Positions 4,783-47,612 of a DNA stretch of 64,000 nt are shown piece after piece. The notes under the pieces were generated by a model. The model saw only the letters and a list, made by a program, of their open reading frames with translations. It did not search any database and was not told the DNA's origin. The stretch comes from a virus. Its lineage: Duplodnaviria; Caudoviricetes. The position numbers and the translations under genes are program-made. How positions within the stretch are numbered: position 1 is the first letter of the stretch; the number at the start of each line of letters is the position of its first letter. The stretch covers positions 14,689-78,688 of IMG/VR virus record IMGVR_UViG_3300031853_000021; one strand, given 5' to 3'.

Positions 4783-6006
4783 CTACTGGTCCAGCCGCTG
4801 ATAAAATGCATTTATTTCCCTGGCGGTCCGCATCAGGTCATCTATGTGATACTTTTCAATCAGGCCGTCTGAATCCGTTTGAATGACATAGCTGTTATAT
4901 GAGATAATCTTCCGCGCTCTATCTCGCCGCAGCGTGCCTGTTTCTGTCAGCTCCCTGTATCCTCTAATGAATTGTCTTCTTGCCCTCCGGAAGACGCGCC
5001 TGCGGATCGTGATGTGCGTCCTGCTTATCCTGTATCCCGCCATGTCCAGCATCGGAACGCCGCGCTGCGCTTTTCCCGGAAGGCTTCGCCGTCGCTTTTC
5101 TTCTTCGATTGTCAGGATCTTGCTGATTCCGGATGTCGTCTTCAGTTCAATCCCCATTTTCTCCCGGAAGTATTTATCCAGATGCTTCGTCGCCCGTTTC
5201 ATCCCTTTTATGGATCTGGACATCAGCGCGAAGTCATCCATGAAGGTGACGGTGCGGATCACGTACGGGATCTTCTTCCCGCGCCGCGTGGTTCCCTGTG
5301 CATACAGGTCGCGGATCGCGTAGGACATCGCGAAATTGAACAGCCAGGCATCGATGTACCCGCCGATGATCAGATGCCCGTCCGGCGCGATCCGTCCCAG
5401 ATATTCCAGCAGGACGATCGCGGCCTTCGCTTTCGGGATCTCCTTCTTCAGGATGTCCACGCAGACCTGATACTTCAGCGTCGCGTATGCGTGGACGACG
5501 TCCGTCTTCTGGATGTACCTGACGCCGACCGTCTCCTTCAGAAGGTATCTGTGCGCCTGATCCTTCAGCAGCGTCTGACCGCGTCCCGGAATGCTGGCGT
5601 GCTGCGTCGGCAGAAGCCGCGCGTTGATCAGCGGTTCGATCATCAGCTTTTCGATGTGTCCGATCAGCTGATGCAGGATGGACAACAGTGCGATGTCCCG
5701 TGTCTTCCCTGTCATGCCGTCCGGACGCTGGCGGATCGTCGGCGGCTCCATGTCGTCCGGTTCGATCCCGTATTCGACCAGATCTTCCACGACGCCGTAC
5801 AGCATCAGCCCGATCGAATGGATCGCTTCTTCCTTCACACGTCTGGATCCGGACAGATCGTCGATCAGGATTTCCGTCCTTCCGATTCCGGCGTACTTCT
5901 CGATGAATACCAGAATGTCGCGGTGCTTCCATTTGCTTTTGAAACATTCTTCGACTGCTTCTTCGCATAGCTTCAGGGACAGCTTCCTGTATCTCTTCGT
6001 GTGCAT
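4783..6006 (-). CDS. DGR reverse transcriptase, left copy (407 aa)
   Basis: RT motifs GKTRDI, QHASIPGRG, KTDV, IIGGYIDAW, TFMDDF, LDMAGY; adjacent to the TR/VR pair. Confidence 0.92.
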   Translation of the reverse strand: MHTKRYRKLSLKLCEEAVEECFKSKWKHRDILVFIEKYAGIGRTEILIDDLSGSRRVKEEAIHSIGLMLYGVVEDLVEYGIEPDDMEPPTIRQRPDGMTGKTRDIALLSILHQLIGHIEKLMIEPLINARLLPTQHASIPGRGQTLLKDQAHRYLLKETVGVRYIQKTDVVHAYATLKYQVCVDILKKEIPKAKAAIVLLEYLGRIAPDGHLIIGGYIDAWLFNFAMSYAIRDLYAQGTTRRGKKIPYVIRTVTFMDDFALMSRSIKGMKRATKHLDKYFREKMGIELKTTSGISKILTIEEEKRRRSLPGKAQRGVPMLDMAGYRISRTHITIRRRVFRRARRQFIRGYRELTETGTLRRDRARKIISYNSYVIQTDSDGLIEKYHIDDLMRTAREINAFYQRLDQ

Positions 6007-6197
6007 AATTCTTTATTTTGTGAAGCGGCGTTCGGTTGCGGTCTGACCTTAAAGCAGATCCGGCCTTGTTACTACTTGCCGCACGCGCAGCCCACAGCTG
6101 CGTGTTCCCCTTTCGAAGATTCCGGTTTTACTGATTTTTGCTTGCGCATGGATATGCAGACGCACATCAGCAGACTTTCGCCTGCCTTCATGAAAAT

Positions 6198-6341
6198 AAG
6201 TCGCGGACGGCTGTTCCAGTTCGCGTTACCGGGCGTGTTGTTGCCATTCTCGCACGCCAGCCCGGCATTCGCCCCGTTGTTCAAGTTCGCGAACCGCCAC
6301 GGGCAGCGAACCCCGGCGGAGCCGGTACCGTTGAAGGCCGA
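6198..6341 (-). ncRNA. DGR template repeat (TR), copy 1
   Basis: 144-bp match to 6443-6586; 11 AAC/AAT codons and 27 adenines on the sense strand; lies outside the target gene. Confidence 0.95.
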
Positions 6342-6379
6342 TCCCGCGCCTGCATACCCTGTTTGTTTATAGTTACATC

Positions 6380-6415
6380 AGGGGACTTCCCCCTCTGGAC
6401 GTCTTACGACGTCCA
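6380..6415 (-). promoter_or_regulatory. Tandem hairpins downstream of VR (DGR target-recognition element)
   Basis: TGGACGTC-GTAA-GACGTCCA (8-bp stem, 4-nt loop holding the TAA stop) followed by AGGGG-AAGT-CCCCT. Confidence 0.75.
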
Positions 6416-8113
6416 TTCACCCCGCTTTTTACCCGCTCCACAAAGCCGCGGACGGCTGCGCCAGCTCGCGTTACCGGGCGCGTTGTGGCCATACTCGCAC
6501 GCCAGCCCGGCAAGCGCCCCGCTGTCCAAGGACGCGAACCGCCACCGGCAGCGAACCCCGGCGGAGCCGGGACCGCTGAAGGCCGACTTGAAGTAGGTCG
6601 TCGCTGATCCGCCGACCTCTTCCGGGAACAGGACGCCCTTCTTTGTCTTCATGAAGGACTTCACATAGTTCCAGCCGGATTTCATTCCTTCGTACAGCAG
6701 GCCAGTGTCTTCGTAGTTCGATGTCACGGATCCCGCCAGATTCTGACTGTCGCGGCATTCGTAGATCGAATAATCCCAATCAGACACAGCGTTCGCCGTG
6801 ACGGTATAAAGCGGATCCAGGCCGACCGCATATGCGCCGTCCAGGACTTCCACGCCAGCCACACGAAGCGGCGACGTTCCATCCGTCAGCCCGTGCGGGC
6901 ATCCGTCCTTCCTTCCCGGAAGAAGTTCTGTCGCGCCTGAATGCCACGGCATCGTCGAAATGTATGTCGTCGCTGTCGTGGTGAATGCGCTTTCCGTCTC
7001 TATGCCGACCGCTGCCAGTTCGTCGCCGTCGATCGTGACGGTTTCGATGGAACTGATCTTGACCAGATCCAGAATGTTCCGCATGTGTGCCTGTCCTCTG
7101 TCCTTGTTCGTGGACGATCCCATGTCGCCGATTGACACGGTCGAACCGACGATCAGGTTCGCGGCCTGCGTCGTCGACAGGATCACGCGCTTCACATTTT
7201 CTTCTGCCTTCGCTACCTGGTACTGTCTGTCGTAGCTGATGCAGCCGTTCGCGATGTTGCTGTTTTCCAGATCGAAGTGCCGCAGCTGCCACATCCGCAG
7301 GATCCATCTTGTATCGCAGTCATTCCACAGTCCTTCATAGATCGTCATCTTCCGCGCCGCTGTGATGCCTGCGGTCGCGCTGGCGAAGTTGTACGGCCTG
7401 ATGCCTGCGCCGGATGTCAGTGCGCCGCTGCTGTTCAGTCCGCCGGGGAATGAAGGATGCCATGTCAGCGCCCGCTTCGTTCCGTCCGGTGCGACATCCC
7501 CGGCGTCCGGATAGAATCCCGCGCCTTTGGTCGTCCTGAAGCTGATGAAATTGAATGAACCGTCGTTCCATTCCTTGATCCACAATGCCAGCGCGAACGT
7601 CCAGACGGGCGCGTCTTCGCCTGTGATGTCGAAGCCGTCTTCGCCTTCGAAGTATGTGATGTTCATGGTTCCATCTTCCAGGGACATCGCATTCGCCCGG
7701 ATGTACCATGTCATCGGATCTTCGTCCGCCCAATCTTCGACGGCGGCATCGGATGCCGTGCACAGCTGCGCGGCGCTCTTTCCTTCCAGATCGTCCAGCG
7801 GCGTCATCGCCGTGTTTCCGGATACTGCTGCATCATAGCTTCGCAGCGTGTACGCCTTGCTGTTCCACGCCTGCGCCGCTGCTTTTGCGAATCTTTCAAG
7901 GATCTTATATTTGCTTGTCTCTCCTGCTGCCGCTGCGCGCGGATAGAATTCCCAGAAGACGCGCGTGGTGTTCGTTCCGTCCAGGACGCTTTTGCACGCC
8001 GCGTCAAGGACAGCCGCATCAGATGACCCGCCGTTCAGCGCGATCGATTCCAGCGCGGCGGCGATCCGTTCGTGCTGTGTCCACGAAGGGAAAATCAGAT
8101 CCATGTCTGCCAT
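6404..8113 (-). CDS. DGR target protein, putative receptor-binding tail protein with C-terminal CLec-fold variable region
   Basis: VR encodes SAFSGPGSAGVRCRWRFASLDSGALAGLACEYGHNAPGNASWRSRPRL at the C-terminus; follows baseplate genes. Confidence 0.88.
   Translation of the reverse strand: MADMDLIFPSWTQHERIAAALESIALNGGSSDAAVLDAACKSVLDGTNTTRVFWEFYPRAAAAGETSKYKILERFAKAAAQAWNSKAYTLRSYDAAVSGNTAMTPLDDLEGKSAAQLCTASDAAVEDWADEDPMTWYIRANAMSLEDGTMNITYFEGEDGFDITGEDAPVWTFALALWIKEWNDGSFNFISFRTTKGAGFYPDAGDVAPDGTKRALTWHPSFPGGLNSSGALTSGAGIRPYNFASATAGITAARKMTIYEGLWNDCDTRWILRMWQLRHFDLENSNIANGCISYDRQYQVAKAEENVKRVILSTTQAANLIVGSTVSIGDMGSSTNKDRGQAHMRNILDLVKISSIETVTIDGDELAAVGIETESAFTTTATTYISTMPWHSGATELLPGRKDGCPHGLTDGTSPLRVAGVEVLDGAYAVGLDPLYTVTANAVSDWDYSIYECRDSQNLAGSVTSNYEDTGLLYEGMKSGWNYVKSFMKTKKGVLFPEEVGGSATTYFKSAFSGPGSAGVRCRWRFASLDSGALAGLACEYGHNAPGNASWRSRPRLCGAGKKRGEWTS
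6443..6586 (-). repeat. DGR variable repeat (VR), copy 1
   Basis: 16 mismatches to TR, 15 at TR adenines. Confidence 0.95.
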
Positions 8114-8128
8114 TTTCTTGTTCCTCCT

Positions 8129-8935
8129 TTATGCTGTGATCTTTGTCAGTGACATGTGCGGGACGCCCCGCTGCGCGTAGATCGCATACGCATATTTCAC
8201 ATCGTTGTCGCTGTCGTAGATGTACGACGCTTCATTGATCTGGCTTGCGATCTCCACGGCTTCGTTCGCCTTATTCAGGACGATCGTCGTGTTCTCCTGC
8301 CGCGTGTTCTCCGCTGTGACGCGTCCGTTCTCTGCGGTCACGCGGGCGTTCTCTGCTTCGACGCGGGCGTTCTCTGCGGTTACGCGGGCGTTCTCTGCGG
8401 TCACGCGGGCGTTCTCCGCATTTGCGCGGCTTGTCTCTGCGCTGACGCGCCTGTTCTCTGCCGTCTTTCTGGCGTTCTCTGCGGTCACGCGGGCGGCTTC
8501 CGCTTCCGCGTATGCCTTCATGGTCGCGTCGAACAGTGACATTTCGTCGCCGGATATGATGGCGTCTTCATCCTTGACGCACGGTTCGATCTCGATTTCG
8601 AACGTGCAGGACGTGATGACTTCGGTCATGTCCCCGGACTTCACTTCGATTTCTGCCAGTGCTGTCCCCGCTGCCGCCAGCGTCTGCGACGTCAGTTCCA
8701 TCGTGACGACAGACCCGGAAAACGTGCACGGCGAATATGCCCGCTTCAGATCCGGCTTCTTGATGTAGGCCGTGACGTTCGATCCGGGCGGGATCTCATA
8801 TTCTTCGCCCTGATTCAGCAGCTGGATTTCGACGTACCGCGTCGCCCTGTCGTGCTGCTTCGCCGATACCTGATACTGCTTCGTAGATCCTGACATCTCG
8901 ATCTTCAGTCTTTTGATGACCCTGTTCAGGCTCAT
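8129..8935 (-). CDS. BppU-like baseplate upper protein with heptad coiled coil
   Basis: AKQHDRATRYVEIQL...YIKKPD...AGTALAEIEV; ARVTAEN heptads. Confidence 0.75.
   Translation of the reverse strand: MSLNRVIKRLKIEMSGSTKQYQVSAKQHDRATRYVEIQLLNQGEEYEIPPGSNVTAYIKKPDLKRAYSPCTFSGSVVTMELTSQTLAAAGTALAEIEVKSGDMTEVITSCTFEIEIEPCVKDEDAIISGDEMSLFDATMKAYAEAEAARVTAENARKTAENRRVSAETSRANAENARVTAENARVTAENARVEAENARVTAENGRVTAENTRQENTTIVLNKANEAVEIASQINEASYIYDSDNDVKYAYAIYAQRGVPHMSLTKITA
8306..8494. repeat. Nine degenerate 21-bp tandem repeats encoding (A/R)RVTAEN heptads
   Basis: GTTCTCTGCGGTCACGCGGGC units on the plus strand; same array at +38677. Confidence 0.9.
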
Positions 8936-8951
8936 GTCTGCATCCTCCTTT

Positions 8952-12914: not shown

Positions 12915-15900
12915 TTATCTCTTCCGCTGTATTTTGTTTACGAATTCATTTTCGACGCGTGTGTATACTCTTTCCGCGACGACATCGCCGTCCATCGTGA
13001 CGTATACATACACGACCGTCCCGCCTGTCAGTGCATCCAGCTTCTTGTCCAGCATGTCGCCCAGGCGATCATAGAACGCTTTCAGCGGCAGGATCGCTTC
13101 CGCTCCCGCTTCGCCGCCTGCCAGCAGTGTGTTCCCGGATGCTCCGAATACTGTCGGGCGTGTCATGATACCGCCGGATTTATACCAGCTGATCCCGAAG
13201 TGCGGGACTGACGGCGGATTCAGACTGAAGTGTCCGGATATATACGGATGCGGCAGTGCCAGATGCGGCAGGCTCCAATGGAAGTTAAACTTCGACCGCA
13301 TGGCGCTGATCGCATTCGCCACGGCCTGCTTCGCCGCATTGATCGGTCTTTCGATCGCCGACTTGATGGCGTTCCATCCGGAAGACGCCGCGCCCTTCAT
13401 GCTGTTCCATGCCGACGACATCACGGACTTGATGCTGTTCATGACGGACTGGACTTTCGACTTCACCGCATTCACGGCGGACGTCACGCCTGACTTGATC
13501 GCATTCCATGCGGATGTCGTCGCGCTCTTCACTCCGTTCCACACGGACGTGATCGTGGTCTTTATCGCGTTGAAGATCGGCGTGACCGCTGTCTTGATCG
13601 CGTTCACTGCGGTCGTGACGGCTGTCTTGATCGCGTTCCAGACGGTCGATGTGGCTGTCTTGATCGCGTTCCAGACGGTCGACACCGTGGTCTTAATCGC
13701 GTTCATGACGGTCGTGATTACGGTCTTGATGCCGTTCCATACTGTGTCGATCACAGTTTTGATCGCCGTCATGACCGGCGTGATGATGTTGTCCTTCACG
13801 AAGTTCAGCGCCGTCGACACTGTGGTCTTGATCGCTTCCCATGCTGCCGTGATCGTCTCTTTGCAGTTCTCCCAGATGAACCGGAACGGAACCGTGATCA
13901 GCTGGAAGGCCGCGCTGATCAGTTCCACGATGAACATGATCGCGACCTGAATGACGCTTTTGATTCCTTCCCAGATCGTCGAAACTGTTTCCGCGACCGT
14001 CGTGAAGATCGTGCTGATCGTCGTCCAGACGGTCGTGCAGAATGTCGTGACGGTCGTGCTGATCGTTGTCCAGATCGTCGTGAAGAACGTGCTGATGCCG
14101 TTCCAGACGCCTTCGAAGAAGCCCTGCACGTTCGTCCACAGTTCTGTCCACGAAGTCCCGAACCATCCCAGGAAGACGTCTGCGACGCCCTGAAGCGCCG
14201 CCAGAACGCCGCTGAAGACGCCCTTGATGCCTTCCCAGACCGCGCCGAAGATCTCCTGCACGCCTGTCCACAGTTGTGTCCAGTTGCCGTTATATGCGCC
14301 GATGAACACGTCCAGCAGCCCCGTGATGACACCGAAGGCTGTTTCAAGTACCGTCGCTATGATTCCGAAGGCTGCTTCGAATACCGGCGCTAACAGGTTG
14401 CAGAAGCCGTCCCAGATGGCACTGATCGTCTGCGTGATCGACTGGAAGCTGATTCCCATCGCTGACAGCCTTTCCTGTATGCCGCCGACGAATTCCTGGA
14501 AGGCGCCTTTGATCCGCTCCCAGATCGCGATGACCGCGTTCCGGAAGTCTTCGTTCGTCCTCCACAGATGGATGAATGCCGCCACCAGCACGGCGATGAC
14601 GCCGATCACGATTCCGATCGGCGATGTCAGGAAGCTGAACGCCGACGACAGTCCGGTCTGTGCCTTCGCAAGTATCCCGGATGCGCCGCCCGCTTTCGTG
14701 TACCACTCGACCATGTTCCCGATCTGCGTGGACACCTGACCCGTGAATATGATCATTTTTCCCAGCGCGACCAGCAAAGGCCCTGCTGCCGCCACGACCA
14801 GGCCGATCCGGATGATCGCCTGCTTCTGTCCTTCGTCCATGTTGTTCAGCTTGTCCACGAAGTCCTGAATCTTGCCGACGACTTCGCGGATCTTCGGCAT
14901 CAGCAGTTCACCGAAGCTGATCGCCAGTTCTTCCAGCTGTGACTTCAGGATGGTCAGCTGTCCCTGTAGGTTGTCCTGCTGCACCTCTGCCATCTTTTCC
15001 GCCGCGCCGGATGCGCCGCCGATCTTCGCGCGCAGATTGTCGAATGCTTCCCCTGAATCCTGGATCAGGAAGTTCGCACCGCGCAGTGAAGCCGTGTCGA
15101 AGATCTGCCCCATGACGCTGTTGTAGTCCTCTTCGGACAGTTCGCCCAGCTTGCCCCGCAGATCTGTCAGAACGTCCTGAAGCGGCCTTGCCTTGCCCTC
15201 TGAATCGTAGGCGGACACACCCAGCGCATCCAGTGCGTCCTTCGCCGTCGATGTCGGCTGATACAGGTTCTTCAGGACACGCTGAAGCATGTTTCCGCCT
15301 TCAGCTGCGGATATATTGTGATTTCCCAGAATTCCCAGCGCTGTCGCTGTGTCTTCGAATGACTGGCCTGTGATGGATGCCTGGCCTGCTGCCTGTGCAA
15401 GTCCTGCGCCGAAGTCAGACACGGATCCCTTCGCACTGGATGCCGTGACCGCCAGAACGTCCGCGACCTTCGAAGCGTCTTCCGTCTTCATGCCGAAGCC
15501 GGACATGATGCCCGTCGCATAGTCTGCGGCCTGCGCGATGCCGATGTTGCCAGCCGCTGCCAGATTCAGCGTCGCAGGCAGCGCGGAATAGATGTCATCC
15601 GTGTCCATGCCTGCCATCGCAAGGATGTTGATCGCGTCCGCTGCTTCACTGGCGGAAAACTTTGTGTCCTTTCCCATCGTCCGCGCCAGCTTCGACAGCG
15701 CGTCCATCGTGTTGACCGTTTCGCCGTTCAGCTTCGACGTGGAATCCTTCGTCAGACCCATCGTCGCCTGAACCTGTGACATCGAAGCGTCGAAGTTCGC
15801 GGCAGTCTTCACTGCTGCCGTTCCCAGTCCGACCGTCGCCATAGACGCGGGCATGATCGCTTCGCCGACCTTCGTGATCGTTCCGCCGATCTTGTTCGCC

Positions 15901-24605: not shown

Positions 24606-25130
24606 TTATGCGAACTTGTCAAATTTGTTTCCCTTCGGCGCTTCCGGCGCTTTCGGAACGATCAGTCTGCATCTGGAAGACACGGTCAGCCCGAAGTCCG
24701 CCGCGCCTTGCCTGCACTGTCTGAAGTACCTGTCCTGCATGATCGCCAGACGCTCGACCTGGCTGTTCACCACTTTGATCGTCTGATAGATCGGACGCCC
24801 GTCTTCGTCCTTCTCCTTCGTCTCGATCGGCATGTCCACCATCAGCGGCAGCTGTGCGATCTGCTGCGTGATCTCTTTGTACTTCTCCTGTGCGATGACC
24901 AATCGTGCCAGCGCGTCCACGTCCAGATTCGAAATCAGGTCGATCGCGCGCAGCTCCTTCACCGTCTTCCGGAAGGCTTTCTTCTGCGTCGGCGTCAGGT
25001 ATGACGGCGCCGTGACCTTGTCGGCGGGCGCTTTCACTTCCGTCCGCTGCCTTTCCGCGATCTCTGCTTTCGTCAGATGTTTCTTTCCCTTCGCCTGAAT
25101 CAGCGAAATCGGCTGTCGTTGTCCTGACAT
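24606..25130 (-). CDS. terS: Terminase small subunit (P27 family)
   Basis: HLTKAEI, APSYLT, FGLTVSSR; directly upstream of terL. Confidence 0.88.
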   Translation of the reverse strand: MSGQRQPISLIQAKGKKHLTKAEIAERQRTEVKAPADKVTAPSYLTPTQKKAFRKTVKELRAIDLISNLDVDALARLVIAQEKYKEITQQIAQLPLMVDMPIETKEKDEDGRPIYQTIKVVNSQVERLAIMQDRYFRQCRQGAADFGLTVSSRCRLIVPKAPEAPKGNKFDKFA

Positions 25131-25212: not shown

Positions 25213-25235
25213 TTTTCGTGGGGAGTTTTCTCCAC
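25213..25235. other. Conserved motif in putative cos/packaging region
   Basis: 22 of 23 bases identical to 63971-63993, while the surrounding intergenic DNA is only partly conserved; between HNH and terS. Confidence 0.5.
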
Positions 25236-25253
25236 AGAATAGGATGGGCGCGA

Positions 25254-28244: not shown

Positions 28245-28599
28245 GCTCTTTCCCTCCTTTCCTGAACACGCTGTAATCTCCGAATGCGTCATACGGCAGT
28301 TCCTGCCGATCGAATCCGGATTCCGGCGGCGGCTTTTCCTCGCCGTCGCCTTCTTCCATGTGTTCGTCTTCGCGCGGATCCTCGACAGGAACGCCGATCA
28401 GATGCGCCATCATTGACGCGATCGCCACGTCGAAGTGTCTTTCGACCTGTGCATAGTGTTCATCCGGCATCGTCTCCCACAGCATCGTCTGAATGTTCCG
28501 GATGCCGTGCAGTGCTTCCTGAAGGCTGTCGCCGTTCAGCAGATTCTTCACGCTGTATGATTTCTTTATCGGTTCCACGAACTTTTCTTTGCTTGCCAT
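28219..28599 (-). CDS. Hypothetical protein
   Basis: ORF coupled to parB. Confidence 0.55.
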   Translation of the reverse strand: MASKEKFVEPIKKSYSVKNLLNGDSLQEALHGIRNIQTMLWETMPDEHYAQVERHFDVAIASMMAHLIGVPVEDPREDEHMEEGDGEEKPPPESGFDRQELPYDAFGDYSVFRKGGKEHGRDDTDG

Positions 28600-30272
28600 C
28601 AGTCTTCGTCCTCCAGATCAATCAGTCCCAGCGATTCCGCGTCGTAGATGTCCATGACGCCGATCACGGCGTATCCTTCCCGGATCCCGCTTGACGTGTT
28701 TTCGTCGTCCACGCACGTCACGACGGCCTTCATCCTGTCGCCTGTGGCCTTTCCGTCCTTCATCGCAAGGATCATCAGCCTGTCGCCCTCTCTGTAGCCC
28801 TGCGCGTCCTTCAGGACGATCATGTACTGGATCTGCTGCGTCTCGATCGCGTGATACATGTCAGCAGACACCCGGATGTATCTTTGCGACCTGTCGTCCT
28901 GCTCCCGCTGCCCGTCCTGGCCTTCCTGCATCGCTTCCAGCTTCTTCTTCGTCTCTCTGTCGATCCTGTCCTGCTCTTCGCTGTATCGCTCTTCGTCAGT
29001 CTTCCGTGCTTCCCGGCGGTCGACGAAGCTGTCGCACTTCATGACGTTCGTCTGCTTCTTCATGCAGGCTTCATAATTGTCGCAGGCGTAGCAGATGCTT
29101 TCCTTCGCTTCCGGATGCGCGTCCACTTCCTTCATCGGCGTGAACAGTCCCGCTTCGATCACCTTGTTCACGAATGCCGTCCAGCTGATCATCTTCCGCT
29201 GCACGAATCGTCCTTCGATCTTCACTTTCAGTTTGATCCCATTCGGCGAACAGTTAATGAACGACACCGGATCCGTGTTCGCGCTGAATTCGTTGTAAGA
29301 TCTGCCGAAGTATTCCTTCAGCTGTTCGATCAGGCCGTCCTTCGTTGTCTGGTCTGTGATCTTCAGCCTTGTCCCTCTGCCCGTCACGTCCTGCCATGCC
29401 GCGAAGATCTCTTCGTCCGCAGGATCCTGATCGTGTGCGAAGCGATCCGCTTCCTGCTGATCCGCGTCATCCTCTTCTTCGAAGTCTTCCGGATAGTTCA
29501 TCTGCCCCGGAATCTCTTCCTGTTCTTCAGCCGCTGCCGCTGCCGCTTTCGCTTCCTTGACGTCTTTCCATGTCAGGCTTCCCGTCTCCTTGTAGCGTTC
29601 CAGCATGTCCCGCTGCCGCTCTTCGTCCATCCCGCTGATCTCATAGGCCGCGCTGAACGTCAGACGGCCTTCTTTCAGTTCCTGTGTGAATTCCGGGATC
29701 AGTCGGTTGTTGATGCTCTCGATCTGCGCGATCTTCGTCCCGGTCATGTTCATGATGGACGCGATCACGTCCCGCAGCCTTCCGGAATCCAGCTTGTAGC
29801 CCTGAAGCGTCAGTCCGTTGTCCTTCATGTACTGAAGCGCGGCCTTCAGCTGCTTTTCCTCTTCCAGAACGTCCATCACGGTCTTGTCGCGGTATGCGTT
29901 CGCCATGATCAGCTGCACCGTCTCTTCGTGTTCCTCTGCCGGATTCTTGATCTGGCACGTGGCGACTTCGAATTCCTTGTATCCCAGATTGCACAGCATC
30001 GTCAGCGCCCGCCAGCGCCTTTCGCCTGCGATGATCCTGTATTCGCCCTTCTCGCACGGTGCATATGTGACCGTCATGTTTTCCAGCAGGCCGCACGTCA
30101 GGATGTCCTGCGCCAGCTTCTCGATGTCGGTCATGCTGTAGAAGTTCTTTTCGTTGCTGTACATCTTCCGGATGCTGATGTCCCGCGTCCGGAACCTTGC
30201 TGTCGGCTTATCGTCGACCGCCGCCTTGCTGTTCTTGTTCAGTGCGTCCAGCACGCTCCATCCTGCCGCCAT
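28599..30272 (-). CDS. parB: ParB-family protein with C-terminal Cys cluster and ASCH/DUF3850-like domain
   Basis: YRIIAGERRWRA arginine patch; central HTH region; C-terminal GYREGDRLMI...GIREGYAVIGV. Confidence 0.85.
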   Translation of the reverse strand: MAAGWSVLDALNKNSKAAVDDKPTARFRTRDISIRKMYSNEKNFYSMTDIEKLAQDILTCGLLENMTVTYAPCEKGEYRIIAGERRWRALTMLCNLGYKEFEVATCQIKNPAEEHEETVQLIMANAYRDKTVMDVLEEEKQLKAALQYMKDNGLTLQGYKLDSGRLRDVIASIMNMTGTKIAQIESINNRLIPEFTQELKEGRLTFSAAYEISGMDEERQRDMLERYKETGSLTWKDVKEAKAAAAAAEEQEEIPGQMNYPEDFEEEDDADQQEADRFAHDQDPADEEIFAAWQDVTGRGTRLKITDQTTKDGLIEQLKEYFGRSYNEFSANTDPVSFINCSPNGIKLKVKIEGRFVQRKMISWTAFVNKVIEAGLFTPMKEVDAHPEAKESICYACDNYEACMKKQTNVMKCDSFVDRREARKTDEERYSEEQDRIDRETKKKLEAMQEGQDGQREQDDRSQRYIRVSADMYHAIETQQIQYMIVLKDAQGYREGDRLMILAMKDGKATGDRMKAVVTCVDDENTSSGIREGYAVIGVMDIYDAESLGLIDLEDED

Positions 30273-30551
30273 TTATTCGCCCTCCTTCTTCGGTTCCTGC
30301 CCTCTCTGCCGCATCTCTTCCGCGAAGTACCTGTCATACGCTTCGAACAGTGCGAACGTCGCCGCGAACAGGACTTCCGGCCTGTCCGTCCCGTTGTGGA
30401 ACGTGACGGAATTGTCGGGATTCGCTTCGATCAGGATCCCTTCGTTCACTTCGTGCTGTGTCCCGTCTCCGTACTTCACGATGAAGTCCGTCTTCGACAG
30501 CTTCAGGACATCCTTCGCATTCAGTCTGATCACATTGTCTTCCTGCTGCAT
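30273..30551 (-). CDS. Hypothetical protein
   Basis: In operon between parA and parB. Confidence 0.6.
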   Translation of the reverse strand: MQQEDNVIRLNAKDVLKLSKTDFIVKYGDGTQHEVNEGILIEANPDNSVTFHNGTDRPEVLFAATFALFEAYDRYFAEEMRQRGQEPKKEGE

Positions 30552-30811
30552 TTCTTTTCCTCCTTCCGGGCGCCAGTCAGCGCCCTGTAGATCTCTTTAT
30601 ATTCCTGTTCGTCGTTCCAGATCCTGCTGTCCAGCGTGTCCAGGCGTTTCGTCAGTCTGGTCACGATCTTCGGCGGCAGTTCGTATCCGTTCCGGACGAC
30701 GATCGACATGATTTCGTATTCACTCTTCAGCGTCAGTTCCGACAGGATCTTGATCTGCGTCATCTTGTTGTCTGCCCTGCGGTATGATCCGCAGATCTCT
30801 TTTTCAGTCAT
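30530..30811 (-). CDS. Hypothetical protein
   Basis: MTEKEICGSYRRAD...QIKILSEL; in operon. Confidence 0.6.
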   Translation of the reverse strand: MTEKEICGSYRRADNKMTQIKILSELTLKSEYEIMSIVVRNGYELPPKIVTRLTKRLDTLDSRIWNDEQEYKEIYRALTGARKEEKKCSRKTM

Positions 30812-31601
30812 ATGCCGCGCCGCCTTCCATGTCTTCGATCAGTTCCTGCGTCACGGCCTGATAGTCCTTCGTCACGATGCAGCCTTTTGAAAACTTCGGC
30901 AGCGGCAGGCGCGCGACCGTTGCCTTCTCCGCCTCGATCGACCGTCTGACGGATGTTCTGAAGCAGTCATACCCGGATACGGTCTTCAGCCATTCTTCGA
31001 CCTGAAGCGATGTCTGATTCTTCTGGCGCATGGTCATCAGCACCTTCGTCCGGATCCCGGCATTCAGGCGCCGAAGATCTTCGATCTGCTCGATCGTGTT
31101 TCCGATGCCCTCGATCTCGAATCCTCCGACCTTCGCCGGGATGATCACCAGATCCGACGCGATCAGGACGTTCGTCACGGTCATGTCCATCAGCAGGCCG
31201 CAGTCCACGATGCAATAGTCGTATGCCCCGTTCACTTCCAGCATCGCCGCCGTGAACCTGGCGATCTGGTCGTCCCTCTCCTTCAGCAGCAGATTCATGT
31301 TCGTCCGCATCAGGTATCCGTTCGCCGGGATGATGTCAATGTGTTCGTACGGTGTCGTCCTGATCAGATCCGCCGTGCTGTATGATCCGCCCGTGCTTCT
31401 GTGTCTTTCCAGCAGTTCCGGCATCCCTGCGCCTTCCGGATCGAAGCTGTCGTACAGCATGGACAGGTTCCCCTGCTGATCCGCGTCGACGCACAGGACG
31501 CGCCGCTGCCTTTCCTCTCCCAGAATGTACGCGATCGATGCCGCCGTCATGGTCTTCCCGATCCCGCCTTTCTGGTTCATTACTGATATGATCTTCATCA
31601 T
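30804..31601 (-). CDS. parA: ParA/Soj ATPase
   Basis: NQKGGIGKT deviant Walker A, VDADQQGN, IVDCG. Confidence 0.92.
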   Translation of the reverse strand: MMKIISVMNQKGGIGKTMTAASIAYILGEERQRRVLCVDADQQGNLSMLYDSFDPEGAGMPELLERHRSTGGSYSTADLIRTTPYEHIDIIPANGYLMRTNMNLLLKERDDQIARFTAAMLEVNGAYDYCIVDCGLLMDMTVTNVLIASDLVIIPAKVGGFEIEGIGNTIEQIEDLRRLNAGIRTKVLMTMRQKNQTSLQVEEWLKTVSGYDCFRTSVRRSIEAEKATVARLPLPKFSKGCIVTKDYQAVTQELIEDMEGGAAYD

Positions 31602-31621
31602 GGTGCGTGTGCCCTCCTTCG

Positions 31622-31930
31622 TTATCCTGCGAATATGTCGTAGTACAGCCGCATCTGTAGATCGCTGAAGCTGTACATCGGCGTCATGTCCGGATCCATT
31701 GGCGGCATCAGGCCGCGCTTCTTGTAGTCCTTGTGCGTGATCTCCGGCGTCGCCCTGAAGTCGATGACGTTCCTTTCCAGATCCTGCTGCCGGATCCGCG
31801 CTTTCCCCGTGTCCTGCTTGATTGATGCCGCCCATCCGTCGAAGATCAGCACCTTTTCTTCTCCTTCCTTCCGGAAGATCCGGACGCGATCCGGATTGTG
31901 CAGCACTTCCGTGAACTCTTTCACTGTCAT
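31622..31930 (-). CDS. Hypothetical protein
   Basis: MTVKEFTEVL start after GAAGGAA. Confidence 0.6.
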   Translation of the reverse strand: MTVKEFTEVLHNPDRVRIFRKEGEEKVLIFDGWAASIKQDTGKARIRQQDLERNVIDFRATPEITHKDYKKRGLMPPMDPDMTPMYSFSDLQMRLYYDIFAG

Positions 31931-38533: not shown

Positions 38534-39940
38534 ATGGAAGGTGATCTGATGTATATGACACAGTCAGCCCCGGAACTGTACGGCGTCCGCGTCGTCAAAT
38601 ACATCCGGTGCAGCCACGACGATCAGGTTCTTCACGGCGACACGCTGGAAGCGCAGAACGAAATACTGGACGACTTCATCGCCCGGAATCACTGCGTCCT
38701 GATCGACACGTTCATCGACGAAGCACTGACCGCCCGGAAGAAATACACGAACCGGAAGGAATTCGTCCGGCTCCTTGACGGCGTCCGGCGGCATGACTTC
38801 GACGTGATCCTGTTCACGAAGCTGGATCGCTGGTTCAGGAATATCGGCGACTATCACAAAATACAGGAAGTTCTGGAAGCGAACGGCGTCCAATGGAAGG
38901 CCGTGACGGAATCGTACGACACGACCACGACGAACGGCAGGCTGCACATCAACATTCGTCTGTCCGTGGCACAGGATGAATGTGATCGTGACAGCGACCG
39001 CATCAAGGACGTGTTCGCGTTCAAGCTGAAGAACAAGTCCTTCGTGACCGGATCCGTCCCGCGCGGTCTGATGCTCGACGCCGAAAAACATGTCGTCCCC
39101 GATCCGGAATGGAAGCAGTTCGCGCTGGATGCCTTCGACATGCTGGAAGTGACCGGATCCGTCCGGAAGTCCCTTTTCGCTCTACAGGAACGGTACAGCT
39201 GCATCTATTCGTACAGCAGCTTCATCCGGATGCTGAAGAATCCGCTGTACAAGGGAATGTATCGTGACGATCCGCAGTTCTGCGATCCTCTGATAGATCC
39301 GGATCGCTTCGACCACATCCAGACGCTGATCAAGAAAAACGTGCGCCAGCGCCGAAGCGGAACGCAGTTCATCTTCAGCGGTCTTTTGACCTGTGACGTC
39401 TGCGGTCGCTCTATCGCAGGATATACGACAGGCCGTCGCCGGAAGGATGGATCCATTACCCGGAAGCCGCGGTACAGATGCACAGCGTGGAACATGAACC
39501 ACAGCTGCACGAATAACAAGTCGTGGATGGAAGAAGTCCTTGAAGATCGCGTCCTGGCTCTTGTTCGCCCGTCCCTCTCCGCATACATCGCGGACTATGA
39601 TGTGGAAGACGGCGGCGGTCGCGGCAGGAATCCGGCAGCTGATGCCGCCCGGATCCGGACGAAGCTGAAGAAGCTGTACGACCTGTTCATGGACGATCTG
39701 ATCGACCGCGATCTGTACAAGTCCGAATACGATCAGCTGAATGCGCAGCTTCAGGAAGCGCTGACTGCTGCCGATCATCCCCGGAAGGACGTCAGCGAAC
39801 TGAAGAAGTTCCTGTCGCAGCCGTGGGAAGATGTGTACAAGGACTTTTCCGTGCAAGAAAAAAATGCGTTCTGGAAGTCCTTCGTGGACACCATGCGCAT
39901 TCGTGAAGACGGCAGCATCGCCGACATTATTTTTTTATGA
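38534..39940 (+). CDS. Large serine recombinase (integrase)
   Basis: YIRCS catalytic motif, TKLDRWFRN, recombinase domain, zinc ribbon CDVCG...YRC...C, coiled coil. Confidence 0.93.
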   Translation: MEGDLMYMTQSAPELYGVRVVKYIRCSHDDQVLHGDTLEAQNEILDDFIARNHCVLIDTFIDEALTARKKYTNRKEFVRLLDGVRRHDFDVILFTKLDRWFRNIGDYHKIQEVLEANGVQWKAVTESYDTTTTNGRLHINIRLSVAQDECDRDSDRIKDVFAFKLKNKSFVTGSVPRGLMLDAEKHVVPDPEWKQFALDAFDMLEVTGSVRKSLFALQERYSCIYSYSSFIRMLKNPLYKGMYRDDPQFCDPLIDPDRFDHIQTLIKKNVRQRRSGTQFIFSGLLTCDVCGRSIAGYTTGRRRKDGSITRKPRYRCTAWNMNHSCTNNKSWMEEVLEDRVLALVRPSLSAYIADYDVEDGGGRGRNPAADAARIRTKLKKLYDLFMDDLIDRDLYKSEYDQLNAQLQEALTAADHPRKDVSELKKFLSQPWEDVYKDFSVQEKNAFWKSFVDTMRIREDGSIADIIFL

Positions 39941-42213: not shown

Positions 42214-42277
42214 GTTGTTTTCTCCTTCCTGGCATACGGAAGGACGCCTTCACGCCCTTCCGCGCTCGATTCTTTGT

Positions 42278-42607: not shown

Positions 42608-42611
42608 TCCG

Positions 42612-42863
42612 TCATAACCTCCTTAGTTTGTATTCTATTCTGTCCAGCTGCCTGTCCGCGTCCTCCCGCGCTGCGCGCAGTTCTTCCCGGACAGCTTCTT
42701 CCATTTTCGTCCGCTCTATCATTTCAGCCTGTTTCCGGATGATCTGCGCCATCGTCTCCGTGACTGTGCACATCATGTCGACGACTTCCAGCAGGCCGCC
42801 GGATCCACCTTCCCACGGTGGCGCGTCCCTCGCTTCGTTCATGCGTCCCCGTCCTTTCTTCAC
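42612..42863 (-). CDS. Conserved hypothetical phage protein
   Basis: Homologue of 3944-4195. Confidence 0.7.
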   Translation of the reverse strand: MKKGRGRMNEARDAPPWEGGSGGLLEVVDMMCTVTETMAQIIRKQAEMIERTKMEEAVREELRAAREDADRQLDRIEYKLRRL

Positions 42864-42997
42864 TCTTCATCAATGATCAGTTCTTCCATTCCGCTTTCGA
42901 TCAGGATTTCTTTGACCTGGTCTTTCAGCAGACGCGGAACCTGTGCATAGGTCTTCTTTCCCAGAATGATCTTCTGTGCCCACAGCATAGCCATCAT
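42860..42997 (-). CDS. Small CD1375/XkdX-like protein
   Basis: MMAMLWAQKIILGKKTYAQVP. Confidence 0.7.
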   Translation of the reverse strand: MMAMLWAQKIILGKKTYAQVPRLLKDQVKEILIESGMEELIIDEE

Positions 42998-43056
42998 CGT
43001 GTCGCCCTCCTTTCCGTAAAGTATTTGCAATAACGCCCGCCGGATGATCTCCCCGA

Positions 43057-43440
43057 TCATTCGTATACCACTTCCGACATCTCCAAGATGCAATCTTCCA
43101 TCATGGCGATCTGCTCTTTCTGTTCGCTGACGATCTTCGTCAGCTGCGCCCGTGTCATCGCTTCTTCTTCAGGCGCTGGCGGATCCGGATCCGGATGTAC
43201 ATCATCCACCCCGTACTGCCACCATGTCGCGAAGTCCTCTTCGATCTCCTGCGCCGTCGCGGCCTTGCCGTCCGGCATGAAGAACTGGACTTCGTCAAAA
43301 CGGTACATCGTCCGATCCGGCTGATCCTCCTGTTTGTACGGCTGGATATTGTCCGCAAGACGGACGAAGATCTTCCCGCCCGGCAGATGTTCCAGCGTCA
43401 CCTTCTGCGGCATCTCTGCCGCGTCGCTCTTGTAATACAT
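43057..43440 (-). CDS. Hypothetical protein, XkdW-like/tail-fibre chaperone position
   Basis: Homologue of 4380-4763. Confidence 0.6.
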   Translation of the reverse strand: MYYKSDAAEMPQKVTLEHLPGGKIFVRLADNIQPYKQEDQPDRTMYRFDEVQFFMPDGKAATAQEIEEDFATWWQYGVDDVHPDPDPPAPEEEAMTRAQLTKIVSEQKEQIAMMEDCILEMSEVVYE

Positions 43441-44683
43441 GCAGCCACTCCTTTCTTTTCTGCTGATCCAGCCGCTGATAGAGTCCCTGAACCTGTTCAG
43501 CCATCTTGATCAGTTCTTCCACGTGGTACTTTTCCTTCAGCCCGTGCGCGTCGGTCTGCTGCACGTAGCTGTTGTACGATATGATTTTCTGTGCACGATC
43601 CCGCCGCAGTGTTCCCGTTTTCTTCAGCTCTCTGTATCCTCTGATCAGCTGCCTTCGTGCCCTCCGGAAGACGCGCCTGCGGATCGTGATGTGCGTCCTG
43701 CTGATCCTGTATCCCGCCATGTCCAGCATCGGGACGCCACGCTGCGCTTTTCCCGGAAGGCTCCGTCGTCGCTTCTCTTCTTCGATCGTCAGTATCTTAC
43801 TGATTCCGGATGTCGTCTTCAGTTCGATTCCCATTTCCTTCCGGAAGTATTTGTCCAGGCGCTTCGTCGCCCGCTTCAGTCCTTTGACGGATCCAGACAT
43901 CAGCGCGAAGTCGTCCATGAAGGTGACGACGCGGATCACGTACGGGATCTTCTTCCCGCGCCGTGTGGTTCCCTGTGCGTACAGGTCGCGGATCGCGTAG
44001 GACATCGCGAAATTGAACAGCCAGGCGTCGATGTACCCGCCGATGATCAGATGCCCGTCCGGTGCGATCCGTCCCAGATATTCCAGCAGGGCGATCGCGG
44101 CCTTCGCCTTCGGGATCTCCTTCTTCAGGATGTCCACGCAGACCTGATACTTCAGCGTCGCGTATGCGTGGACGACGTCCGTCTTCTGGATGTACCTGAC
44201 GCCGACCGTCTCCTTCAGAAGGTATCTGTGCGCCTGATCCTTCAGCAGCGTCTGACCGCGTCCCGGAATGCTGGCGTGCTGCGTCGGCAGAAGCCGCGCG
44301 TTGATCAGCGGTTCGATCATCAGCTTTTCGATGTGTCCGATCAGCTGATGCAGGATGGACAACAGTGCGATGTCCCGTGTCTTCCCTGTCATGCCGTCCG
44401 GACGCTGGCGGATCGTCGGCGGCTCCATGTCGTCCGGTTCGATCCCGTATTCGACCAGATCTTCCACGACGCCGTACAGCATCAGCCCGATCGAATGGAT
44501 CGCTTCTTCCTTCACACGTCTGGATCCGGACAGATCGTCGATCAGGATTTCCGTCCTTCCGATTCCGGCGTACTTCTCGATGAATACCAGAATGTCGCGG
44601 TGCTTCCATTTGCTTTTGAAACATTCTTCGACTGCTTCTTCGCATAGCTTCAGGGACAGCTTCCTGTATCTCTTCGTGTGCAT
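43295..44683 (-). CDS. DGR reverse transcriptase, right copy (462 aa, 55-aa read-through extension)
   Basis: Same motifs as the left copy; TAG replaced by CAG at 43460-43462. Confidence 0.88.
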   Translation of the reverse strand: MHTKRYRKLSLKLCEEAVEECFKSKWKHRDILVFIEKYAGIGRTEILIDDLSGSRRVKEEAIHSIGLMLYGVVEDLVEYGIEPDDMEPPTIRQRPDGMTGKTRDIALLSILHQLIGHIEKLMIEPLINARLLPTQHASIPGRGQTLLKDQAHRYLLKETVGVRYIQKTDVVHAYATLKYQVCVDILKKEIPKAKAAIALLEYLGRIAPDGHLIIGGYIDAWLFNFAMSYAIRDLYAQGTTRRGKKIPYVIRVVTFMDDFALMSGSVKGLKRATKRLDKYFRKEMGIELKTTSGISKILTIEEEKRRRSLPGKAQRGVPMLDMAGYRISRTHITIRRRVFRRARRQLIRGYRELKKTGTLRRDRAQKIISYNSYVQQTDAHGLKEKYHVEELIKMAEQVQGLYQRLDQQKRKEWLHVLQERRGRDAAEGDAGTSAGREDLRPSCGQYPAVQTGGSAGSDDVPF

Positions 44684-44874
44684 AATTCTTTATTTTGTGA
44701 AGCGGCGTTCGGTTGCGGTCTGACCTTAAAGCAGATCCGGCCTTGTTACTACTTGCCGCACGCGCAGCCCACAGCTGCGTGTTCCCCTTTCGAAGATTCC
44801 GGTTTTACTGATTTTTGCTTGCGCATGGATATGCAGACGCACATCAGCAGACTTTCGCCTGCCTTCATGAAAAT

Positions 44875-45018
44875 AAGTCGCGGACGGCTGTTCCAGTTCG
44901 CGTTACCGGGCGTGTTGTTGCCATTCTCGCACGCCAGCCCGGCATTCGCCCCGTTGTTCAAGTTCGCGAACCGCCACGGGCAGCGAACCCCGGCGGAGCC
45001 GGTACCGTTGAAGGCCGA
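44875..45018 (-). ncRNA. DGR template repeat, copy 2
   Basis: Identical to 6198-6341 by base-wise comparison. Confidence 0.95.
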
Positions 45019-45056
45019 TCCCGCGCCTGCATACCCTGTTTGTTTATAGTTACATC

Positions 45057-45092
45057 AGGGGACTTCCCCCTCTGGACGTCTTACGACGTCCA
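45057..45092 (-). promoter_or_regulatory. Tandem hairpins downstream of VR, copy 2
   Basis: Identical to 6380-6415. Confidence 0.75.
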
Positions 45093-46790
45093 TTCACCCC
45101 GCTTTTTACCCGCTCCACAAAGCCGCGGACGGCTGCGCCAGCTCGCGTTACCGGGCGCGTTGTGGCCATACTCGCACGCCAGCCCGGCAAGCGCCCCGCT
45201 GTCCAAGGACGCGAACCGCCACCGGCAGCGAACCCCGGCGGAGCCGGGACCGCTGAAGGCCGACTTGAAGTAGGTCGTCGCTGATCCGCCGACCTCTTCC
45301 GGGAACAGGACGCCCTTCTTTGTCTTCATGAAGGACTTCACATAGTTCCAGCCGGATTTCATTCCTTCGTACAGCAGGCCAGTGTCTTCGTAGTTCGATG
45401 TCACGGATCCCGCCAGATTCTGACTGTCGCGGCATTCGTAGATCGAATAATCCCAATCAGACACAGCGTTCGCCGTGACGGTATAAAGCGGATCCAGGCC
45501 GACCGCATATGCGCCGTCCAGGACTTCCACGCCAGCCACACGAAGCGGCGACGTTCCATCCGTCAGCCCGTGCGGGCATCCGTCCTTCCTTCCCGGAAGA
45601 AGTTCTGTCGCGCCTGAATGCCACGGCATCGTCGAAATGTATGTCGTCGCTGTCGTGGTGAATGCGCTTTCCGTCTCTATGCCGACCGCTGCCAGTTCGT
45701 CGCCGTCGATCGTGACGGTTTCGATGGAACTGATCTTGACCAGATCCAGAATGTTCCGCATGTGTGCCTGTCCTCTGTCCTTGTTCGTGGACGATCCCAT
45801 GTCGCCGATTGACACGGTCGAACCGACGATCAGGTTCGCGGCCTGCGTCGTCGACAGGATCACGCGCTTCACATTTTCTTCTGCCTTCGCTACCTGGTAC
45901 TGTCTGTCGTAGCTGATGCAGCCGTTCGCGATGTTGCTGTTTTCCAGATCGAAGTGCCGCAGCTGCCACATCCGCAGGATCCATCTTGTATCGCAGTCAT
46001 TCCACAGTCCTTCATAGATCGTCATCTTCCGCGCCGCTGTGATGCCTGCGGTCGCGCTGGCGAAGTTGTACGGCCTGATGCCTGCGCCGGATGTCAGTGC
46101 GCCGCTGCTGTTCAGTCCGCCGGGGAATGAAGGATGCCATGTCAGCGCCCGCTTCGTTCCGTCCGGTGCGACATCCCCGGCGTCCGGATAGAATCCCGCG
46201 CCTTTGGTCGTCCTGAAGCTGATGAAATTGAATGAACCGTCGTTCCATTCCTTGATCCACAATGCCAGCGCGAACGTCCAGACGGGCGCGTCTTCGCCTG
46301 TGATGTCGAAGCCGTCTTCGCCTTCGAAGTATGTGATGTTCATGGTTCCATCTTCCAGGGACATCGCATTCGCCCGGATGTACCATGTCATCGGATCTTC
46401 GTCCGCCCAATCTTCGACGGCGGCATCGGATGCCGTGCACAGCTGCGCGGCGCTCTTTCCTTCCAGATCGTCCAGCGGCGTCATCGCCGTGTTTCCGGAT
46501 ACTGCTGCATCATAGCTTCGCAGCGTGTACGCCTTGCTGTTCCACGCCTGCGCCGCTGCTTTTGCGAATCTTTCAAGGATCTTATATTTGCTTGTCTCTC
46601 CTGCTGCCGCTGCGCGCGGATAGAATTCCCAGAAGACGCGCGTGGTGTTCGTTCCGTCCAGGACGCTTTTGCACGCCGCGTCAAGGACAGCCGCATCAGA
46701 TGACCCGCCGTTCAGCGCGATCGATTCCAGCGCGGCGGCGATCCGTTCGTGCTGTGTCCACGAAGGGAAAATCAGATCCATGTCTGCCAT
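45081..46790 (-). CDS. DGR target protein, copy 2 (identical 569 aa)
   Basis: Translation identical to 6404-8113. Confidence 0.88.
   Translation of the reverse strand: MADMDLIFPSWTQHERIAAALESIALNGGSSDAAVLDAACKSVLDGTNTTRVFWEFYPRAAAAGETSKYKILERFAKAAAQAWNSKAYTLRSYDAAVSGNTAMTPLDDLEGKSAAQLCTASDAAVEDWADEDPMTWYIRANAMSLEDGTMNITYFEGEDGFDITGEDAPVWTFALALWIKEWNDGSFNFISFRTTKGAGFYPDAGDVAPDGTKRALTWHPSFPGGLNSSGALTSGAGIRPYNFASATAGITAARKMTIYEGLWNDCDTRWILRMWQLRHFDLENSNIANGCISYDRQYQVAKAEENVKRVILSTTQAANLIVGSTVSIGDMGSSTNKDRGQAHMRNILDLVKISSIETVTIDGDELAAVGIETESAFTTTATTYISTMPWHSGATELLPGRKDGCPHGLTDGTSPLRVAGVEVLDGAYAVGLDPLYTVTANAVSDWDYSIYECRDSQNLAGSVTSNYEDTGLLYEGMKSGWNYVKSFMKTKKGVLFPEEVGGSATTYFKSAFSGPGSAGVRCRWRFASLDSGALAGLACEYGHNAPGNASWRSRPRLCGAGKKRGEWTS
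45120..45263 (-). repeat. DGR variable repeat, copy 2
   Basis: Identical to 6443-6586. Confidence 0.95.
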
Positions 46791-46805
46791 TTTCTTGTTC
46801 CTCCT

Positions 46806-47612
46806 TTATGCTGTGATCTTTGTCAGTGACATGTGCGGGACGCCCCGCTGCGCGTAGATCGCATACGCATATTTCACATCGTTGTCGCTGTCGTAGATGT
46901 ACGACGCTTCATTGATCTGGCTTGCGATCTCCACGGCTTCGTTCGCCTTATTCAGGACGATCGTCGTGTTCTCCTGCCGCGTGTTCTCCGCTGTGACGCG
47001 TCCGTTCTCTGCGGTCACGCGGGCGTTCTCTGCTTCGACGCGGGCGTTCTCTGCGGTTACGCGGGCGTTCTCTGCGGTCACGCGGGCGTTCTCCGCATTT
47101 GCGCGGCTTGTCTCTGCGCTGACGCGCCTGTTCTCTGCCGTCTTTCTGGCGTTCTCTGCGGTCACGCGGGCGGCTTCCGCTTCCGCGTATGCCTTCATGG
47201 TCGCGTCGAACAGTGACATTTCGTCGCCGGATATGATGGCGTCTTCATCCTTGACGCACGGTTCGATCTCGATTTCGAACGTGCAGGACGTGATGACTTC
47301 GGTCATGTCCCCGGACTTCACTTCGATTTCTGCCAGTGCTGTCCCCGCTGCCGCCAGCGTCTGCGATGCCAGTTCCATCGTGACGACGGAACCCTCAAAC
47401 GTACACGGAGAATATGCGCGTGTCAGGTCCGGCTTTTTGATGTAGGCCGTGACGTTTGATCCCGCCGGGATCTCGTAGGCCGCGCCGTTGTCCAACAGTT
47501 CCACTTCGACGTACCTGGTCGCCCTGTCGTGCTGTTTTGCTGATACCTGGTACTGTTTTGTGGATCCGGACATTTCTATCTTCAGGCGTTTGATCACTCT
47601 GTTCAGGCTCAT
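46806..47612 (-). CDS. BppU-like baseplate upper protein
   Basis: First 82 aa diverged from the left copy, remainder identical. Confidence 0.75.
   Translation of the reverse strand: MSLNRVIKRLKIEMSGSTKQYQVSAKQHDRATRYVEVELLDNGAAYEIPAGSNVTAYIKKPDLTRAYSPCTFEGSVVTMELASQTLAAAGTALAEIEVKSGDMTEVITSCTFEIEIEPCVKDEDAIISGDEMSLFDATMKAYAEAEAARVTAENARKTAENRRVSAETSRANAENARVTAENARVTAENARVEAENARVTAENGRVTAENTRQENTTIVLNKANEAVEIASQINEASYIYDSDNDVKYAYAIYAQRGVPHMSLTKITA

Follow-up and report, generated by a model that had tools for sequence, protein, structure and literature searches.

Do two diverged phages really carry one and the same tail-protein cassette, identical to the last base even in the part that changes fastest? 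The question is raised by a stretch of 64,000 nt (hereafter the window), which comprises bases 14689-78688 of the 78,688-nt IMG/VR virus record IMGVR_UViG_3300031853_000021, a metagenome contig. The window holds two copies of a cassette built around a diversity-generating retroelement (DGR), with a reverse transcriptase (RT) gene, a template repeat (TR) and a variable repeat (VR) located at the C-terminus of a tail protein. An earlier note, made from the sequence alone, explained the identity of the two copies by a very recent swap or gene conversion of the whole host-range module between co-resident phages. We propose, with a probability of roughly 0.8, that the two copies represent one stretch of an assembly graph that was written twice into a contig threading two related phages. 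The exact identity of the 3258 nt belongs to this single assembled record, and an independent assembly fails to reproduce it.

The repeat and the two genomes behind it

The repeat, which we refer to as R, occupies positions 5432-8689 and 44109-47366 of the window. The two copies of 3258 nt show no mismatch, and the exact run stops precisely at these coordinates. Apart from R, no exact match shared by the two laps exceeds 83 nt, and given this runner-up a match of 3258 nt is far beyond chance. All genes in R are on the minus strand. The repeat contains codons 83-268 of a BppU-like gene, the entire DGR target gene with its VR, the TR, and codons 1-191 of the RT gene. The 3.26-kb identical cassette of the earlier note is borne out as sequence, and its boundaries were placed correctly at codon 192 of the RT gene, (6006-5432)/3, and codon 82 of the BppU-like gene, (8935-8689)/3. 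The break in identity, which had been called abrupt, is indeed so on the BppU side, where 16-25 mismatches per 100 nt set in immediately, but not on the RT side, where 2-10 mismatches per 100 nt are found over about 1 kb.

Comparison of the record with itself gave exactly two collinear laps (record 1-39926 against 39919-78684), which are 65-85% identical and in which some modules are unrelated, so that two different phages are present. Each lap amounts to a complete temperate siphophage with a unit of about 39 kb, encoding terS, terL, portal, capsid, tape-measure protein (TMP), Dit, Tal, DUF859, BppU, DGR and lysis functions as well as a large serine recombinase, a cI-like repressor, ParA/ParB-like proteins and Rep. 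The view that two diverged phages share the DGR core is in agreement with these two diverged, complete temperate genomes. No host DNA was found in the 78,688-nt record, which IMG/VR classes as 'linear' and not as a provirus, and scores as '100% complete'.

The ends of the record overlap by 12 nt. This 12-mer, TCCACGGATGAG (X; 63989-64000, plus strand), is both the record's end and its first 12 nt, and the junction of the laps in the middle of the record carries a variant with three mismatches, TCCACAGAATAG (Y; 25231-25242, plus strand), about 100 nt upstream of terS (24606-25130). Contig L044, which stems from a different sample, terminates on the last base of X, and G003/L045 on the last base of Y; three contigs from three samples stop exactly at the last base of the 12-mer, indicating that it marks a physical cohesive (cos) end. 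Other contigs read through the site: G001 runs across Y at 99% identity, and G002/L051 runs from the record's last base via X into the record's first base.

In record coordinates, the layout is S1 (1-20119), R, S2 (23378-58796), R, S3 (62055-78688). The only adjacencies present are S1-R, R-S2, S2-R and R-S3, plus S3-S1 via X, and these allow only two unit genomes, phage alpha (R + S2) and phage beta (S1 + R + S3). Alpha, 38,677 nt in total, comprises R and the 35,419 nt that separate its two copies, and contains Y once. It corresponds to one full lap of the window (8690-47366) with, in order, A-type tail and head genes, cos Y, B-type early genes, a serine integrase gene (38534-39940, plus strand), B-type lysis genes and R. 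Beta consists of S1 (20,119 nt), R and S3 (the last 16,634 nt), measures about 40.0 kb and has X at both ends. G001, a complete genome of 39,110 nt that comes from another sample and has a terminal repeat of 112 nt, runs collinear to alpha at 96-97% identity, and a 38,818-nt contig of the independent assembly described below corresponds to alpha as well. Among other contigs, the flanks of the cassette are alpha-type in L003 and G003 and beta-type in L004. Compared with the natural genomes alpha and beta, the record as printed links the flanks of the repeat crosswise. Reading the record as printed, with a phage 'A' at record 1-39918 and a phage 'B' in the rest, was considered and rejected. A cos phage requires the identical 12-mer at both ends, and in this parse one genome would bear two different cos 12-mers; the parse is also contradicted by G001, G002 and the contigs of the independent assembly.

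The independent assembly

Exact-protein look-ups were carried out with four proteins of the record, namely the DGR target, the B-type Tal, the E_A ParB-like protein and the L_A lysin. All four, the hypervariable target included, were found only in the ENA assembly ERZ27256883 and in Logan SRR9036418, which evidently go back to the record's own sample. A literature search for SRR9036418 yielded nothing. In a sister ENA assembly, contig names take the form k141_*. The first of the relevant ENA contigs (38,818 nt) carries the A-type tail genes, the exact proteins of BppU-like copy 1 and of the target, and an RT gene that is cut after codon 191. Its length equals 38,677 + 141 nt, as for the alpha circle opened at the RT-side boundary of R, and it ends at window 5432-5434. 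The second contig (28,551 nt) starts at about record 10,672 and continues through E_A and cos X into the B-type head and tail genes. It encodes the exact E_A ParB-like protein, the B-type proteins from terS through Tal (587 aa, exact) and DUF859 (492 aa), and breaks off about 1,356 nt into R, after a 268-aa BppU protein and 260 codons of the target gene. The third contig (9,729 nt) contains the L_A lysis genes and the integrase gene; its first base lies exactly 141 nt inside the RT end of R, and at its far end it shares 141 nt with the beginning of the 28,551-nt contig. For the 28,551-nt contig the record predicts 28,650 nt, a gap of 99 nt that equals one repeat unit of the TMP gene. These figures fit to the base, indicating that the same pair of phages was assembled.

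In the record, the TMP gene contains 33/99-nt tandem repeats at window positions 51973-52569 and 13325-13822. The B-type TMP is 1211 aa long in the record and 1178 aa long in the ENA assembly, which has one 99-nt unit fewer, and the repeat number therefore depends on the assembly.

Beta is contiguous in the ENA assembly as S1...cos...S3, which confirms the division into alpha and beta in this very sample, and the fork at the RT-side boundary of R is real there. No 78-kb contig is present in the ENA assembly, in which the contigs break at R with overlaps of 141 nt. A compacted de Bruijn graph with k=141 does not write 1.36 kb twice. As beta has about 1,356 nt of the cassette on a contig of its own while the alpha contig holds all of R, the two cassettes must differ at least once per 141 nt over approximately the first 1.2 kb. 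The BppU/target-5' part of R copy 2 (about window 45893-47366) is probably not the true sequence of beta. The BppU-like protein of copy 2, which joins a B-type N-terminus to the C-terminal part encoded in R, gave no exact match anywhere in the look-ups, and that of copy 1 is present in ENA. Of the 197 members of the BppU protein cluster, 40 were examined and none of these lies on the 28,551-nt contig. One cluster protein, P0009, was considered as the BppU of beta, as it has a B-type N-terminus and 7 aa differences in the part corresponding to R, and was rejected because it comes from other samples. No record was found for the exact protein of RT copy 1, a result that is uninformative because the ENA L_A contig begins inside the RT gene. 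The exact protein of RT copy 2 is encoded beside the exact target protein on a contig of Logan SRR9036418.

Arithmetic on the ends of the ENA contigs, with k=141, limits the stretch shared by alpha and beta to at most about 2,042 nt (5432-7473), containing the 3' half of the target gene with the VR, the TR, and the 5' half of the RT gene. A stretch of at most about 2 kb is shared by alpha and beta closely enough to merge at k=141. Even within these 2,042 nt, the assembler would have merged any bubble, for instance one caused by a VR that differs.

Origin of the two identical copies

The following course of events would give the record its structure. The record would be a short-read metagenome contig from a sample of rumen type that joins two co-occurring temperate cos siphophages in one path. 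R is the sole exact match between the laps that is longer than 83 nt, which points to a single shared node and a simple loop: at high k, R would be the only node common to alpha and beta, and the loop of alpha would hang on it. Beta would be linear, with dead ends at cos. The path would enter node R from beta, traverse the alpha loop once, pass R again and finish beta, resulting in S1-R-S2-R-S3. The sequence of the node, which is that of alpha, would thereby be printed twice, and the slightly different cassette of beta would be overwritten by the consensus. R copy 1 would then be the native cassette of alpha, and copy 2 the string of copy 1 set in a B-type tail-gene context, the two being identical by construction, VR included. 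The assembler of the record, the traversal of the loop and the projection of the bulge are steps that we infer. In metaSPAdes, bulges caused by rare strains are masked onto the consensus backbone of the abundant strain (PMC5411777), and the authors of CheckV report that IMG/VR contigs exceeding their expected length more than twofold are artefacts of assembly (PMC8116208).

In seven related cassettes, from relatives in different metagenomes, no differences occur in the TR, and pairwise VR differences number 10-21 sites even where the remaining 3.1 kb varies at only 1-7 sites; between L007 and L008, for example, 10 differences lie inside the VR and one outside. Two identical VRs that are maintained independently would therefore be unexpected. 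The earlier note pointed to the identical VR, which carries no information if one node was printed twice.

Several points weigh against a node printed twice. The path through R in the Joint Genome Institute (JGI) assembly was judged from contigs. That ERZ27256883 and SRR9036418 derive from the sample of the record is deduced from the exact identity of hypervariable proteins and the base-exact contig arithmetic. The difference between the beta cassette and R rests on graph logic and one negative exact-protein look-up, not on an alignment. Finally, a near-identical block of up to 2 kb is really shared by the two phages, and to this extent part of the inferred recombination survives.

We consider it quite unlikely that all 3258 nt, the VR among them, are truly present in both alpha and beta as the result of a very recent swap or gene conversion of the module. 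Such an event would explain the exact identity in the record, and it is in line with the RT-side boundary being a genuine fork in the independent assembly and with the presence, in other samples, of cassettes of about 97% identity on both backbone types without clustering by backbone. However, identity is uninformative where one graph node is visited twice by a contig, beta has about 1,356 nt of R on a contig apart from alpha, and the BppU-like protein of copy 2 is not reproduced. In addition, the two partial cassette copies on contig G002 (sample 3300021256), which belong to the two backbones, differ at 26/504 nt, and the VR turns over faster than one substitution per 3 kb. The claim of a very recent swap of the whole module is not supported, given an identity that is not reproduced and the 1.36 kb that beta has on its own contig; the result of the independent assembly comes close to the 'consensus collapse' that the earlier note had itself named as evidence to the contrary.

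The cassettes of about 97% identity that occur on both backbone types, without clustering by backbone, do indicate that this module is exchanged between backbones. The exchange is real, but of the kind that is ordinary in phage mosaicism. A narrower possibility is that the DGR core of about 2 kb (the VR half of the target gene, the TR and the N-terminal half of the RT) is truly base-identical in both phages, including the VR. This is unlikely, yet it has an appreciable chance of being correct. If true, homologous recombination, breaking within the RT gene, would have exchanged the core very recently between backbones that differ by 15-35%, and DGR cores would move between backbones within the community faster than the DGR rewrites its own VR.

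A physical cointegrate, a real molecule of 78.7 kb formed when one homologous crossover within the cassette (Campbell-type, independent of the integrase) brought circular alpha into beta, is very unlikely. The topology S1-R-S2-R-S3 is exactly the product of one crossover, but crossover between non-identical cassettes would yield hybrid and not identical copies. Moreover, the ends of the contig are cos ends, and a molecule of twice the size with an internal cos cannot be a packaged form; in the independent assembly alpha closes to a circle and beta lies on contigs of its own, and linkage over 2-3 kb is beyond short reads. Tandem prophages at one attachment (att) site of one chromosome (polylysogeny) with gene conversion can practically be dismissed: each lap has genes for a large serine recombinase and a cI-like repressor and the relatives at 72% identity are prophages in Lachnospiraceae genomes, but the record contains no host DNA and is not classed as a provirus by IMG/VR, the laps meet at cos, which lies upstream of terS and is separated from each of the mid-lap integrases by about 13 kb, and the 12-mers at the junction and the ends are unfit for an att duplication. 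The co-residence of the two phages proposed earlier finds no support, either as prophages or as a tandem pair, in a host-free contig whose laps are joined at cos and not at att.

G002 (IMGVR_UViG_3300021256_000142, loci L033-L035) is a contig of 49,462 nt, or about 1.25 laps, which was also scored 100% complete. Its path leads from an A-type tail through the cassette, L_A/E_A and cos to a B-type head and tail and then to 504 nt of a second cassette copy. G002 is another chimeric path of more than one lap, and with its 49.5 kb it is a second IMG/VR contig of this phage group with a like defect.

The record calls for caution, as a database virus genome scored '100% complete' would consist of two phages joined at a common cassette, their linkage crossed and the cassette of one overwritten by that of the other. 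The usual k-mer test for concatenated genomes would miss this record because the laps have diverged. Recent transfer, VR identity or DGR action in trans that is inferred from such contigs is unsafe without phased reads.

The DGR and its likeness to known systems

What survives as biology is an active tail-protein DGR with a divergent RT, the core of which is common to mosaic backbones, a situation that is real but expected. The target gene (6404-8113, minus strand; twin at 45081-46790) is located downstream of Dit, Tal, DUF859 and BppU and encodes a 569-aa tail protein with the VR at its C-terminus. It matches phrog_17147 (E 3e-132) and phrog_5302, annotated as 'tail protein' (E 2e-14). No Pfam family matched the target, and sequence searches of the PDB with the target and the RT gave no matches. 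An AlphaFold2 model of the target, built from an alignment of 21 sequences, had a pLDDT of 40 and was unusable for fold assignment, and an Atlas search with the C-terminal part of the target gave only a weak lead to FGE-sulfatase (score 0.90), which 14% of the members of the matching cluster carry. Homologues of the target at 72% identity are found in prophages of Lachnospiraceae (Fusicatenibacter, Hominifimenecus). A search of GenBank phages with the target identified no cultured relative and only unannotated 'Bacteriophage sp.' entries from human stool with at most 72% identity. The prefix STEW19 in the scaffold name of one relative suggests a rumen data set.

The VR lies at 6443-6586 (twin at 45120-45263) and the TR at 6198-6341 (twin at 44875-45018), both on the minus strand; the TR is invariant in 7/7 related cassettes. 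Alignment of the TR (6341->6198) with the VR (6586->6443) shows 16 mismatches, 15 of which are at adenines of the TR, and over the seven cassettes 105/107 VR mismatches are at TR adenines, of which the TR holds 27. The sole difference in the record that is not at an adenine is a C in the TR at 6301 and a G in the VR at 6546. A 3-nt deletion within the VR was observed in the relative L007. The VR ends 37 nt ahead of the stop codon, with a GC-rich end resembling an initiation of mutagenic homing (IMH) site and a hairpin beyond it. Two small hairpins (6381-6414, minus strand) can be read from the sequence just 3' of the VR and IMH. The first (6414-6397) has a 7-bp stem and a GTAA loop and overlaps the stop codon, and the second has a GGGG/CCCC stem. 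With this clear adenine-specific pattern, the element works like a DGR with a divergent RT, and a VR that varies among close relatives next to a fixed TR argues for ongoing diversification. As the TR is invariant in all relatives, DGR action in trans between copies would be possible in principle.

The RT gene starts approximately 190 nt past the TR. RT copy 1 (4783-6006, minus strand) encodes 407 aa and combines the N-terminal half from R with an L_A-type C-terminal half, and RT copy 2 (43295-44683, minus strand), which is the RT of alpha, encodes 462 aa and combines the N-terminal half from R with an L_B-type C-terminal half. The two proteins are 93% identical, and copy 2 has a C-terminal extension of 55 aa. 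RT copy 1 matches phrog_1423 (RT, E 6e-31), and its match to RVT_1 (E 2.5e-6) scores 27.8 bits, below the cut-off of 29.6; RT copy 2 likewise stays under Pfam's gathering threshold for RVT_1. The motifs usual in the RTs of DGRs are YxDD and (I/L/V)GxxxSQ; both RT copies carry FMDD and LIIGGYIDAW and deviate from these canonical motifs. No open reading frame (ORF) of the size of Avd is present between the target and RT genes, and a 143-aa ORF after the RT gene has no family match. Avd is not universal among DGRs.

The BppU-like gene at the other edge of R (8129-8935, minus strand; twin at 46806-47612) encodes a protein of 268 aa with a BppU_N domain (E 4e-7), and the proteins of the two copies are 96% identical. 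It contains 21-nt tandem repeats (8243-8545 and 46920-47222) encoding AENARVT-like heptads. In other samples, several beta-type contigs break off after approximately 450-570 nt of the cassette, at the 21-nt array or shortly beyond it. Elsewhere, both phages encode ParB_N/DUF3850 proteins (window 28599-31835; record 2993-4744) and alpha additionally encodes a ParA-type ATPase, a partition-like toolkit beside the large serine recombinases and Rep (REP_ORF2-G2P).

As in other temperate siphophages with mosaic genomes, the tail-tip or host-range segment is far more similar than the backbones, and the same type of cassette is found on different backbones in different samples. Unlike in those phages, the block ends here inside genes (the RT gene and probably the target gene) and not at gene borders, and its true extent and identity are blurred by assembly. 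The DGR resembles that of Bordetella phage BPP-1 (Mtd-TR-Brt) and the tail-fiber DGRs of gut phages in combining an RT and a TR with a VR that lies C-terminally in a tail protein, and in having adenine-specific mismatches, a GC-rich end with a hairpin 3' of the VR, and a place in the tail module of a temperate phage. It differs from them in that no Avd-like gene was found, in the FMDD and IGGYIDAW motifs of the RT with its RVT_1 match below the cut-off, and in a target that matches neither a Pfam family nor a solved structure. The proposed assembly history is like strain masking in metaSPAdes (PMC5411777), in which a rare variant is projected onto the abundant consensus and a repeat edge is used twice in one path, with the limit that the mechanism is deduced here from the outcome and from the contrasting k141 assembly. 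With the multi-genome IMG/VR contigs reported with CheckV (PMC8116208), the record shares a metagenomic origin, a score of '100% complete' and a size of about twice that of its relatives' genomes (78.7 kb compared to 38.7-40.0 kb). Those contigs contain a single genome repeatedly and are detected by their k-mer frequency, whereas the present record joins two phages and only 3.26 kb is duplicated.

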